Positions 42,531 through 63,859 of a DNA stretch of 64,000 nt are shown in pieces. The position numbers and the translations under genes are program-made. Origin of the DNA: Escherichia phage vB_EcoM_Lutter; the sequence record NC_054924.1; one strand, given 5' to 3'. Below the pieces are notes generated by a model. That model was given only the letters and a program-made list of their open reading frames with translations. It was not told the origin of the DNA and ran no database searches. How positions within the stretch are numbered: position 1 is the stretch's first letter; each line of letters begins with the position of its first letter.

Positions 42531-43001
42531 TTAATCATGTTTCCACACCCCATCGGTATTTGACCAAAGCCGCTGATTATCTGATCCTCGCCACAGCTTT
42601 TTAGTCGGAAGATTTTTCTCATACTTCCCATCAATAATAACATCAACATATTTAAGCATTTCTAGCTGTTTAACATCTTCAAACTTATATCCTGTCCACA
42701 ACCAAATGCTTTTATTGGGATAAAGATTTTTTACTGTTTGAACAATGCAATGAATAACATCTCGGTTATCAGGATAGAGAGGGTCACCTCCAGTTATAGT
42801 CAATCCTTCTATATAATCATTATTCAAACATTCAATTAATTGCTCTAGTGTTTCACCAGTGAATGGAACGCCATTTCTAGCGTTCCATGTTGATTTATTA
42901 TAACACCCTTCACATTTATGCAAACAACCTGTAACGAAAAGAACGACCCTGCATCCAGGGCCATTCACAAAATCGCAAGGATAAAATCTATCATAATTCA
43001 T
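42531..43001 (-). CDS. nrdG: anaerobic ribonucleotide reductase activating protein (radical SAM)
   Basis: 156-aa ORF with CxxxCxxC cluster (CLHKCEGC). Confidence 0.9.
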   Translation of the reverse strand: MNYDRFYPCDFVNGPGCRVVLFVTGCLHKCEGCYNKSTWNARNGVPFTGETLEQLIECLNNDYIEGLTITGGDPLYPDNRDVIHCIVQTVKNLYPNKSIWLWTGYKFEDVKQLEMLKYVDVIIDGKYEKNLPTKKLWRGSDNQRLWSNTDGVWKHD

Positions 43002-44815
43002 TGGTGTTTAACCCTATGCATGATTTCTTTATTTTTGCCGAGATTAAATCCACGTTCGTTCGGATTTCCCAAATAACCACAAGTTCTTCTTATTGTGTTC
43101 ATCTTTTTAGGATCAGTTTCTCCACAAATAGAACAAACAAACCCGTTTTCAGTAGGAGTCATTTCATGGGTACTTCCGCATGTAAAACACTTATCTACTG
43201 GCATATTAACACCAAAATAATCTAAATGCTGTGCAGCATAATCCCACACGGCCTCAAGACCTTTTAGGTTATTTTTCATATCAGGAAGTTCAACATAAGA
43301 AATGTGACCACCTGTCGCAATGAAATGATATGGCGCTTCACGAGAAATCTTTTCAAACGGAGTAATATTTTCTTCTACTGAAACATGGAAACTATTAGTG
43401 TACCAGCCTTTATCAGTAACATCCTTTACACTTCCATATTTCTCAGTATCAAGTTTACAGAAGCGATAGCACAGGTTTTCAGCAGGAGTAGAATACAAGC
43501 TAAAAGCAAAACCAGTTCTTTCAGTCCACTGCTTAAGACGAGCATTCATTTTAGTTAAAATTTCTCGTCCAATATCACGACCGACAAGAATATTCAATTC
43601 GTGAATACCAATGTATCCTAGGGACACTGAACTTCTACCGTTTTTAAATAACTCAATTATGTCGTCATCAGGTTTAAGACGAACCCCGAATGCACCTTCT
43701 TGGTAAAGAATAGGAGCAACAGTAGCTTTAACTCCTTTTAAGGAACTAATTCTACACATCAAAGCTTCAAAACATAAATCCATTCGTTCATTAAATAGCT
43801 CAACAAATTTCTGTTCATTGAATTGTGTTCCAATATAAGAATCTAACGCGATGCGAGGAAGATTCAGTGTTACAACACCAAGATTATTACGTCCATCAAG
43901 AATTTCATTACCAGTCGAATCTTTCCATACGCTCAAGAAACTACGGCAACCCATTGGAGAAACAGGAACAGATGAACCGGTGATAGCTTTATTGTTCTTA
44001 GCTGAAATAATATCAGGATACATTCTTTTGCTTGCACACTCTAGAGCAAGCTGCTTAATATCATAGTTCGGATCGTCTTTGTAAAGATTAACGCCTTCTT
44101 CGACGAACATAACAAGCTTAGGAAAAATAGGAGTTATCCCATCACGACCGAGACCTTTAATGCGGTTTTTAAGAATTGCCTTCTGAATCATTCGTTCAGT
44201 CCAGTCAGTTCCCGTACCAAATGTAATTGTTACAAAAGGAGTCTGTCCGTTTGAACTAAAGAGAGTATTTACTTCATATTCATAAGCTTGGAATGCATCG
44301 TATACGTCTTTTTCTGTTTTAGATTGAGCATAATTCAACGCATCAGCGATTTGCCATTTTTCTGCATCCTCAATATGTTTTGCATAGGTGCGTTTAACAT
44401 AAGGAGAAAGTACTTTATCTACATTCGCAAAAGTCGTTCCGCCATATTGGTGAGAAGCAACCTGTGCAGTAATTTGTGCCATAATTGCAGTAGCAACGCC
44501 AATTGATTTAGGAGTTTCAATCTGTGCATTACCTAGCTTAAATCCATTCTCAAGCATCCCCTTTAAATCTACTAAACAACAATTAGTAAAGGGCAATGAT
44601 ATACTGTAATCTAAATCATGAAAATGAATTAATCCAACATTATGGGCATTTACAATATGACTTGGAAGAATACGACAAGCGATATGTTTAGAAACAATAC
44701 CGGCCATTAAATCTCTTTTTGTTGGAAAGACACGAGAATCTTTGTTGGCGTTTTCGGTATTTAATTCTTTATCTTTATTTGAAATAAAATTTAAAACATC
44801 TTTCTCTAAAGACAT
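42998..44815 (-). CDS. nrdD: anaerobic ribonucleoside-triphosphate reductase, intronless
   Basis: 605-aa continuous ORF with C-terminal glycyl radical motif (RRTCGYLG) and zinc ribbon. Confidence 0.9.
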   Translation of the reverse strand: MSLEKDVLNFISNKDKELNTENANKDSRVFPTKRDLMAGIVSKHIACRILPSHIVNAHNVGLIHFHDLDYSISLPFTNCCLVDLKGMLENGFKLGNAQIETPKSIGVATAIMAQITAQVASHQYGGTTFANVDKVLSPYVKRTYAKHIEDAEKWQIADALNYAQSKTEKDVYDAFQAYEYEVNTLFSSNGQTPFVTITFGTGTDWTERMIQKAILKNRIKGLGRDGITPIFPKLVMFVEEGVNLYKDDPNYDIKQLALECASKRMYPDIISAKNNKAITGSSVPVSPMGCRSFLSVWKDSTGNEILDGRNNLGVVTLNLPRIALDSYIGTQFNEQKFVELFNERMDLCFEALMCRISSLKGVKATVAPILYQEGAFGVRLKPDDDIIELFKNGRSSVSLGYIGIHELNILVGRDIGREILTKMNARLKQWTERTGFAFSLYSTPAENLCYRFCKLDTEKYGSVKDVTDKGWYTNSFHVSVEENITPFEKISREAPYHFIATGGHISYVELPDMKNNLKGLEAVWDYAAQHLDYFGVNMPVDKCFTCGSTHEMTPTENGFVCSICGETDPKKMNTIRRTCGYLGNPNERGFNLGKNKEIMHRVKHQ

Positions 44816-62553: not shown

Positions 62554-62819
62554 TAGTATTTTTCCTCTGGTTGGAACACAGCACGGCAAGCCCACATACT
62601 GGCTTCTTTGAGTTTCGTTTTAGCAATAGTTAACTGATCGAGGCTTTCGGCGTAATTCTTCGCGAGTTCATCATCTTCACAGCTATCAAATGCTTCCCAG
62701 AATTCATCATATAAAGCATCAAAGATAAGCCCTAAACGAACTTCAGCATCTTTGATAGCATTCACTTTACTGATTTTATCGTCAGTATGTGGTTTATAAC
62801 CTTTAATGTCTTCAATCAT
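62553..62819 (-). CDS. small acidic protein (vs.4 position; possible Acb2-type cyclic-nucleotide sponge)
   Basis: 88-aa ORF at the position where T4 vs.4/Acb2 lies; assignment by size and synteny only. Confidence 0.4.
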
Positions 62820-63033
62820 ATTTTACTTCCTCACCTGTTCCCAAATCATATTCAACTAAACGAATAGGTTCATGAATGCCATATCCTTGAACAGAAATTT
62901 CTGTCGTAGGATAAATTCCATTAATATCACCCATGTTCCATACTTCGTTAAATTGCTGTTCGCCTGAATTACTAAACCACTCGGCGAAAGCATTTAGCAC
63001 ATCTTCAGAACCTTCAATAATTATCTTTGCCAT
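62812..63033 (-). CDS. hypothetical protein
   Basis: 73-aa acidic ORF. Confidence 0.4.
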   Translation of the reverse strand: MAKIIIEGSEDVLNAFAEWFSNSGEQQFNEVWNMGDINGIYPTTEISVQGYGIHEPIRLVEYDLGTGEEVKYD

Positions 63034-63395
63034 TACAAACTCTCGGTGAAGGTACGAGCGATAACGTCGCGCTGCTGTTCCGGAGTCAGAGAGTTAAAGC
63101 GAACTGCATAACCGGATACACGGATGGTCAGCTGCGGATATTTTTCCGGATGCTTAACTGCATCTTCCAGAGTTTCACGACGCAGAACGTTAACGTTCAG
63201 GTGTTGACCACCTTCAATTTTAACTGTAGGCTGTTGCTCAATTTCAATTTCACGGGCATGCAAACCATAGAAAATTTCTGGGTCTACAAAAGAGTCCTCT
63301 TTAAAGGTTTTAGAGACAATAATTCGTGCTTGAATACCATCTTCAAAATAAATAGTACCTTTATGTGTGCCTTCAAGAATTTGATATGCTTTCAT
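63033..63395 (-). CDS. autonomous glycyl radical cofactor (GrcA/YfiD-like, T4 Y06I-type)
   Basis: 120-aa ORF; C-terminal ~60 aa essentially identical to E. coli GrcA including RVSGYAVRF; that half is markedly GC-rich. Confidence 0.85.
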
Positions 63396-63402
63396 ATAAA
63401 CC

Positions 63403-63732
63403 TCAATTAGAAAATAAATTTATCCAAGATTGTTCTTTAATTAAAAATGGCTCAGAATCATATGCCATTAAACTCTGTGTGATTAGTCCTTTAAAAGGCC
63501 CATCAATAAATTCCATGGTAAAATATGGAATTTTATTCATTAGCCGTGCATTAGGAGCAGTACACAAAACTCTGCATCCTTTGAATACGCCTTTTTGTAA
63601 TTTGTATTGCTTAGGATAAAATTCGCTCAAGACGTTGTTATTTGCCAAAATTTCAAAATGATTCACCAATTTATTTTTAATAGTTTTTGGCGAAAAATAA
63701 AGATATTCGAAAAGCTGAGTGTCTGTCATCAT
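63403..63732 (-). CDS. hypothetical protein
   Basis: 109-aa ORF. Confidence 0.45.
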
Positions 63733-63859
63733 TGCATTCCGATTACGAAAAACTGTGGACGAGTAATACCATCAATGCAACATTTAATATTACAGCAGCA
63801 GTGTACAGTGTCAATATGGACACTATAAATCTTATCCATATCAGGAGATTTGACAGGCT

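Follow-up and report, generated by a model that had tools for sequence, protein, structure and literature searches.

We found that gene vs.6 of Escherichia phage vB_EcoM_Lutter is very likely an old phage copy of grcA whose glycyl-radical domain tract was replaced, probably repeatedly, by the homologous part of the host E. coli grcA gene, and that a parallel event took place with the grcA of K. pneumoniae. The gene was analyzed within a window of 64,000 nt (the whole stretch of DNA examined, from record NC_054924.1). The features used below are as follows, with gene nucleotides counted from the ATG.

62812..63033, minus strand: vs.5 ORF, whose ATG shares bases with the vs.6 stop (TAATG)
63033..63395, minus strand: vs.6 (phage grcA); the ORF runs from ATG to TAA, encodes 120 aa and has its stop codon at 63033..63035
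63033..63048, minus strand: gene nt 348-363, phage-type tail TTC ACC GAG AGT TTG TAA, the right-hand junction zone
63049..63217, minus strand: gene nt 179-347, putative host-derived conversion patch of 169 nt encoding the glycyl-radical domain; 169/169 identical to E. coli grcA
63111..63113, minus strand: predicted glycyl-radical site Gly95 (GGT, motif RVSGY), counterpart of GrcA Gly102
63218..63395, minus strand: gene nt 1-178, putative old phage-lineage N-terminal domain (diverged GrcA N-domain), AT-rich; GC 33.7%, GC3 20%
63403..63732, minus strand: vs.7 ORF, directly upstream of vs.6 and syntenic

Gene vs.6 and its neighborhood

By sequence and synteny, the ORF at 63033..63395 is the known T4-type gene vs.6 (Y06I in T4), a full-length homologue of bacterial grcA/yfiD. 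It is orthologous to and syntenic with T4 vs.6 (NC_000866 63557..63919) and with vs.6 of RB69 and e11/2, and lies in the regB-denV early region with vs.7 and vs.5 on either side, as in the T4 vs.6 orthologue group. The T-even early-gene block around it has vs.7 upstream and vs.5, vs.4, vs.3, regB, vs.1 and vs downstream, comparable to RB69, e11/2 and T4, and the overlap of the vs.6 stop with the vs.5 start is likewise annotated in these three phages. Only 6 of 363 nt and 2 of 120 aa differ from reference T4 (357/363 nt and 118/120 aa identical), in agreement with the Y06I homology that an earlier note, made by reading the sequence, had proposed. Phages Pinarejo and REP3 carry a vs.6 that is 100% identical to the window gene. 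The gene has been found conserved in 6 of 6 T4-like genomes and recorded as a Gly_radical match (PMC1524935).

The vs.6 product matched Pfam Gly_radical (PF01228) over residues 60-101 (E = 2.5e-18) and NCBIfam TIGR04365 (GrcA; IPR011140), with residues 20-120 aligned (E = 1.2e-45). Because its N-terminal domain is diverged, the TIGR04365 score (154.9 bits) falls under the equivalog cut-off of 170, and on these profile matches the product would best be classed as a phage subfamily of GrcA rather than as a strict equivalog. Residues 61-120 are identical to residues 68-127 of E. coli GrcA (PDB 6OWR chain), as the earlier note had recognized for the C-terminal 60 residues and GrcA/YfiD, and RVSGY with Gly95 aligned both to GrcA and to the C-terminus of PflB (residues 697-759).

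Genes vs.7 and vs.6 are likely co-transcribed. A sigma-70-like match upstream of vs.7 (TTGACA-16-TAATAT, 10/12, at 63814..63787 on the minus strand) is a consensus match only. An Rfam scan of the vs.6 locus found no relevant family. Two other candidates were rejected: a terminator-like hairpin at 63199..63213, which lies on the plus strand antisense to vs.6 and is one of 2 such sites, no excess over the 0.9 expected from shuffled sequence (sd 1.0), and a 127-aa plus-strand ORF at 63027..63410, antisense over all of vs.6, which appeared to be a mechanical ORF without support.

The earlier note had also listed the glycyl-radical enzyme NrdD among the phage genes, and it is present as an uninterrupted 605-aa ORF (42998..44815, minus strand) with Pfam NRDD (E = 5.8e-171) and Gly_radical domains. 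Unlike vs.6, nrdD had no nucleotide match to E. coli in a megablast search of the whole window. T4 nrdD carries a group I intron, and the uninterrupted ORF thus marks this phage as an intron-less T-even relative distinct from T4 itself. A 156-aa ORF (42531..43001, minus strand) adjoins nrdD in the nrdG position.

A tract identical to E. coli grcA

When vs.6 was searched by blastn against 5,426 complete E. coli genomes, grcA was matched in all 5,426 of them, with 97.3% identity over the last 185 nt. This was clearly not the low identity to host grcA that, according to the earlier note, would imply ancient divergence. Ungapped comparison resolved the match into an unbroken run of 169 identical bases and, after it, one synonymous difference in each of the five final sense codons. 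All bases of the tract agree with the majority E. coli grcA allele (169/169), and 5,156 of the 5,432 E. coli records that matched contain it with 0-1 mismatch; K-12-type grcA differs from it at one base. Among other hosts, grcA was 98.8% identical to the tract in a cryptic Escherichia and 91.7% identical in Citrobacter amalonaticus; the figure was approximately 85% for Klebsiella and Enterobacter and 82.8% for Salmonella enterica, and the remaining species gave 76-88%.

The 56 residues encoded by the tract are nearly invariant across Enterobacterales. The donor comparison took in grcA of 80 bacterial species besides E. coli, and in many of these the encoded peptide is the same. Bacteria with the identical peptide differed from the tract at 14-35 of 169 nt, Enterobacterales with the same amino acids reached only 79-92% nucleotide identity, and other phages with nearly the same peptide differed at 20-45 nt. 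Judging from these alignments, a conserved protein cannot account for nucleotide identity of 169/169; since bacteria with the same peptide are less identical to the tract, the donor was E. coli itself and the transfer recent. In a neighbor-joining tree of the tract, Tequatrovirus, Mosigvirus, E. coli and cryptic Escherichia formed one clade (97% bootstrap) and the phage sequences were nested in Escherichia. The 5' halves of phage grcA grouped by phage genus.

The boundaries of the tract are also visible in base composition. Gene nt 1-178 have a GC content of 33.7% and the tract 49.7%, compared with a window mean of 34.0% (sd 4.2% for 169-nt windows; z = 3.7 for the tract), and both GC and GC3 of the tract are host-like. 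The GC-rich 3' half noticed earlier, at roughly 63040..63250, is therefore real and could be narrowed to 63049..63217; in a sliding 169-nt GC plot this was the maximum of the window and the only site in 64 kb where any 169-nt stretch attained 49.7%. Similarly, megablast of the entire 64-kb window against the E. coli collection returned the vs.6 tract as the sole match, and blastn detected no similarity to host nucleotides upstream of gene nt 179 or downstream of the stop codon.

E. coli grcA and its relatives are comparably similar in the 5' part and in the tract, without a host-side discontinuity. The discontinuity sits in the phage gene, which passes from no detectable nucleotide similarity to 100%. 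On this comparison the direction of transfer is from host to phage. Hundreds of phages sequenced independently, and metagenome contigs as well, have the tract in frame with phage sequence on both sides, and about 498 GenBank phage records reach 95% identity or more to E. coli grcA.

Probable replacement within an older phage gene

The N-terminal half of vs.6 had been described in the earlier note as phage-like and AT-rich, and the host 3' end as a recent capture fused to a phage N-terminus. The composition (33.7% GC) and the lack of host similarity by blastn agree with the former description, but this half proved to be a diverged GrcA N-domain. With the radical domain removed, a profile of the phage N-half aligned by hhalign to the bacterial GrcA N-domain profile with a probability of 97.1% (E = 6e-11), end to end over 61 columns at 28% amino acid identity; BLASTP of the N-half against the GrcA N-domain gave E = 5e-6. 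Pfam found no domain in the N-terminal 60 aa of the product alone. Since its N-half is homologous to the GrcA N-domain, the entire phage protein is a GrcA homologue.

The same two-part architecture of about 120 aa is shared by T5-like phages and by Straboviridae of at least seven genera. It often starts with MKAYQ... and occurs in Mosigvirus, Jiaodavirus, Karamvirus, Slopekvirus, Pseudotevenvirus, Krischvirus, T5-like Demerecviridae and other large phages. Over seven or more genera, the identity of phage 3' domains to the best host in a panel of 81 host genes ranged from 63 to 91%. Outside Tequatrovirus, Mosigvirus and Jiaodavirus the radical-domain DNA was 72-85% identical to the best of these 81 genes; the Slopekvirus 3' domain, for example, was 80-81% identical to K. 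pneumoniae grcA. As two-part genes with a diverged 3' domain are present in other genera, the complete gene is older than the conversion event. Unconverted homologues (those of Slopekvirus, Karamvirus, Pseudotevenvirus and Krischvirus, and T5-like trn 2.21 / T5p055) share with vs.6 the two-domain architecture and the MKAYQ... N-terminus, and the T4-like ones among them occupy the same site upstream of a vs.5-like ORF; they differ from it in that even the best host gene matches their 3' domain at only 72-85% identity. We infer that these homologues show the pre-conversion state of the window gene.

In T5-like Demerecviridae a 122-aa grcA-like protein is encoded beside tRNA genes (records L092:220-588, Bf23 ORF trn 2.21; L093:215-583, Salmonella phage S133; and L140-L165). 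It has the MKAYQ start and an otherwise distinct N-domain, and its radical domain is 72-76% identical at the nucleotide level to any host gene. The T5-like gene accordingly represents an old, unconverted lineage.

The 3' end of vs.6 has also kept its phage character. All five sense codons of the tail differ synonymously from the host TTT ACT GAA AGC CTG, and a GAG AGT CTA TAA tail is common to Mosigvirus and the distant Slopekvirus. On the left the tract is bounded by the E-G-G-Q-H codons, the first point at which the phage gene can be aligned with the host gene, and on the right it ends a few codons short of the stop. N-half homology, old two-part homologues and the phage-type last 16 nt together argue for internal homologous replacement rather than fusion. 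Thus, of the capture proposed in the earlier note, the recent host origin stands (169/169) and the fusion does not. The simplest reading of these sequence features is that the tract arose by homologous patch replacement (gene conversion) inside a pre-existing phage gene.

The idea that the right junction is fixed by GAGAG serving as the vs.5 Shine-Dalgarno sequence was weakened by T4, where the codon is GAA, and by metagenome contig L183, where host-type sequence continues through the stop codon. Phage vB_VIPECOOM01 (L181:301-669) has a 6-nt in-frame duplication just upstream of the junction that lengthens the EIEIE repeat and gives a product of 122 instead of 120 aa; the direct repeat GAAATTGAAATTGA near the junction of its vs.6 looks slippage-prone.

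Probable recurrence within E. coli phages

Between Tequatrovirus and Mosigvirus, the 5' 178 nt showed 10.8% divergence with 11 fixed differences, whereas the tract showed 1.3% divergence and none (Fisher p = 3e-4 for 5' part versus tract, window compared with RB69). Given this absence of fixed differences, the tract must have arisen long after the two genera separated. At every variable tract site among converted phages the host base was the majority allele.

The tail was analyzed in 22 converted sequences from isolates, IMG/VR and metagenomes, over 15 nt with 5 variable sites. Each of these sites toggles between the phage base (p) and the host base (H) in a largely nested order, and 10 haplotypes were found among the 22 sequences, such as ppppp, Hpppp, HHppp, HHHpp (T4) and HHHHH (L183). 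The number of host bases is 0 of 5 in the window gene, 1 in e11/2, 2 in several phages, 3 in T4 and 5 in L183, a Mosigvirus-like contig. Differing step lengths occur inside both Tequatrovirus and Mosigvirus, four pairs of tail sites violate the four-gamete test, and the left junction is identical in 22/22 sequences. These tail patterns suit conversion tracts with variable end points better than a single event followed by mutation, although the sample is modest. All staircase sites are third-position transitions, so recurrent mutation could generate some of the haplotypes.

Within the tract, nt 219 (T/C) is the one site that separates the majority from the K-12-type E. coli allele, and it is polymorphic in phages too; this is suggestive at most, because C is also present in other phage genera and may be a retained ancestral base. 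Rare in-tract variants were also compared with other genera as possible ancestral phage bases left behind by patchy heteroduplex repair; several match the state of other genera, at third-position sites with few alternatives. As read from the patterns in these 22 sequences, host DNA has probably overwritten the vs.6 tract more than once in E. coli phages. Laboratory T4 (L178:5558-5920, minus strand) carries a non-synonymous change in the tract (CGT to CAT, R73H) that is absent from the other 21 converted sequences.

Klebsiella phages and host tracking

In the neighbor-joining tree, tracts of Jiaodavirus (Klebsiella phages) were located among Klebsiella and Enterobacter hosts, apart from those of other phages. 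Jiaodavirus tracts (L084, L085, L123, L182 and L185) were 154-166/169 identical to K. pneumoniae grcA (L195:100-483; this comparator is chromosome CP125156.1, filed in the plasmid collection), with a perfect run of 158 nt in metagenomic contig L185, and only 146-149/169 identical to E. coli grcA. Their left junction coincides with that of E. coli phages, and their tail, TTC ACA GAG GCA CTA, is again phage-type. Within the tract, 21 sites distinguish E. coli grcA from K. pneumoniae grcA, and here each group of phages sides with its own host. Besides, 77 GenBank phage records were at least 95% identical to K. pneumoniae grcA. These alignments show an independent exchange of the same segment, from K. 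pneumoniae grcA into Jiaodaviruses, and the spread of Jiaodavirus identities suggests that the tracts differ in age or came from different species of Klebsiella.

Two donors have thus been seen for the tract, E. coli and K. pneumoniae. A Salmonella grcA query found no phage above 95% identity, nor did a query with grcA of a Klebsiella MAG; the latter result is explained by the MAG being of the wrong species compared with K. pneumoniae, whereas the Salmonella result stands. The gene is unconverted in Slopekvirus (Klebsiella), Karamvirus (Enterobacter), RB49 (E. coli) and T5-like phages. With these genera and without a Salmonella-type phage, host tracking is not universal. A broader reading is that the radical-domain segment evolves in concert with grcA of the current host, being repeatedly re-templated in a strictly lytic, host-DNA-degrading phage, independently in E. 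coli and Klebsiella phages, so that the segment is a record of the recent host; for us the case for this proposal is evenly balanced. The tract may reflect the recent natural host better than the isolation host does, and the exchange may be favored by keeping the phage spare part matched to host PflA/PflB.

Several records are of separate interest. Yersinia-labelled phages PST, PYps55T and PYps32T carry the E. coli-type tract; the single Yersinia grcA in the panel is only 83% identical. Salmonella phage PSE-D1 has a K. pneumoniae-type tract (97.1%). Records CP125156.1, NZ_OL790696.1 and NZ_CP141089.1 are filed as plasmids and have whole-chromosome size (4.8-5.4 Mb). A contig labelled 'Vagococcus sp. 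WN89Y' (L033) carries an enterobacterial grcA, which suggests contamination or mislabelling, and the IMG/VR 'viral' contig L126 contains a full-length host-type grcA (MITGIQI...).

Alternative explanations

The tract could have entered one T-even lineage in a single recent host-to-phage conversion, its allele then spreading through Tequatrovirus and Mosigvirus by phage-phage recombination during co-infections and the junction variants arising later by mutation or phage-phage exchange. T-even phages recombine readily, and this general knowledge, together with the left junction shared by all 22 sequences and the fact that every tail variant is a single transition, gives the scenario some weight. 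It would need crossovers exactly at the tract edges, since the adjacent 178 nt keep their 11 fixed differences. Besides, all five variable tail sites toggle specifically to the host base in nested order, junction lengths vary in both genera, and the separate-host event in Jiaodavirus indicates that the process is repeatable. We therefore consider a single conversion unlikely, and repeated replacement by host DNA remains our preferred reading.

Two further explanations would remove the replacement itself. Illegitimate recombination might have captured a 3' fragment of host grcA and joined it to an unrelated ORF of the phage to give a new chimera, as the sharp mid-gene discontinuity in GC and identity and the absence of a Pfam domain in the N-terminal 60 aa could suggest; this is highly improbable, given that the N-half shares ancestry with the GrcA N-domain, that many phage genera have the complete gene with an old 3' domain, that the five last codons are phage-type and that no host flank follows the stop codon. 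That there was no such transfer at all, the identity being due to extreme purifying selection or convergent codon choice, to an assembly or contamination artefact, or to movement from phage to host, is hardly credible. The near invariance of the 56 encoded residues across Enterobacterales is the one point in favor of conservation, but as described above bacteria with the identical peptide and phages with nearly the same one differ at many of the 169 nt, and the Rfam scan found no family. An artefact does not fit in-frame tracts in hundreds of independently sequenced phages and metagenome contigs, and the reverse direction does not fit an E. coli grcA that is continuous with its relatives across the junction.

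Function and proposed mechanism

E. coli YfiD and T4 Y06I are the two biochemically validated spare-part proteins of pyruvate formate-lyase (PFL), which are radicalised by PFL activase and restore the oxygen-cleaved enzyme (PMC8683613); radical installation on Y06I and PFL rescue were reported by Wagner et al. 2001, as summarised in PMC8683613. From its 98% identity to Y06I, the vs.6 product would share this spare-part function. The host activase PflA would install a glycyl radical on Gly95, the radicalised product would dock on PFL that has been stripped of its radical domain by oxygen, and the rescue would restore fermentative production of acetyl-CoA and formate in the infected cell.

With regard to the origin of the tract, phages have long carried a grcA whose N-domain had diverged and whose radical domain, at the outset, had diverged too. 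In the E. coli-infecting Tequatrovirus and Mosigvirus lineages, a fragment of chromosomal host grcA would have undergone homologous recombination with the phage copy, the two being about 75-85% identical at that time. Replacement would have been limited to the only segment similar enough to pair, 169 nt from the E-G-G-Q-H codons to a point a few codons short of the stop; the sequence shows that the phage kept its own N-domain and final codons. Recurrent conversion would keep the tract synchronized with the common E. coli allele and produce variable right-hand junctions. Once installed, the tract provides perfect homology to host DNA and should make further exchange easier, a plausible positive feedback that would account for the continued synchrony with the common host allele. 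T4 recombination proceeds via UvsX/UvsY/gp46-47 and join-copy replication. On general T4 biology, phage nucleases would free fragments of host DNA, and these are assumed to be taken up by this recombination and replication machinery.

Significance and comparison with known systems

The vs.6 gene and its biochemical role are already known and belong to textbook T4 biology. In the searchable literature we found no report for vs.6 of nucleotide identity to the host, junction structure, conversion or host tracking, and these may have been noticed earlier. Parallel and probably recurrent host-specific conversion is the added result and is of moderate interest. T-even phages destroy host DNA and have almost no sequence in common with E. 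coli at the nucleotide level. The vs.6 tract is a clean natural example, base-perfect, bounded by the limits of homology and with a K. pneumoniae counterpart in Klebsiella phages, and it makes homologous recombination from a host into a lytic phage directly measurable. It is also a possible marker of a phage's recent host. Caution is needed with phylogenies and host predictions based on vs.6, which reflect conversion and not descent.

T4 vs.6 (Y06I) has the same locus, neighbors (vs.8-vs.7-vs.6-vs.5-vs.4-vs.3-regB) and length as the window gene. T4 differs by Q54P and R73H and by a right-hand junction that is three synonymous sites longer (TTT ACT GAA in T4, TTC ACC GAG in the window). E. coli GrcA (YfiD; PDB 6OWR; TIGR04365) has the C-terminal 60 residues, the 169 nt and RVSGY in common with vs.6, and the N-domains are homologous over their full length; that of vs.6 is about 28-35% identical to, and 7 residues shorter than, the N-domain of E. 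coli GrcA. Unlike E. coli grcA, vs.6 is placed in an early-gene cluster of a lytic phage, without the host promoter or 3' flank.

The closest comparison is with cyanophage psbA and psbD, for which intragenic recombination between host and phage has been described (Zeidner 2005, Sullivan 2006, as cited in PMC3037559). As presented there, these are also host-like metabolic genes of T4-like phages, with host patches detected by G+C shifts and mosaic phylogeny (PMC3037559). Similarly, vs.6 displays an abrupt phage-to-host switch and a composition shift within one ORF, and its patch nests with its own host. It differs from psbA and psbD in that the patch covers a single defined domain, has a fixed left junction and is host-identical at every base, and in that it occurs in a classical coliphage model, with a parallel in Klebsiella phages.
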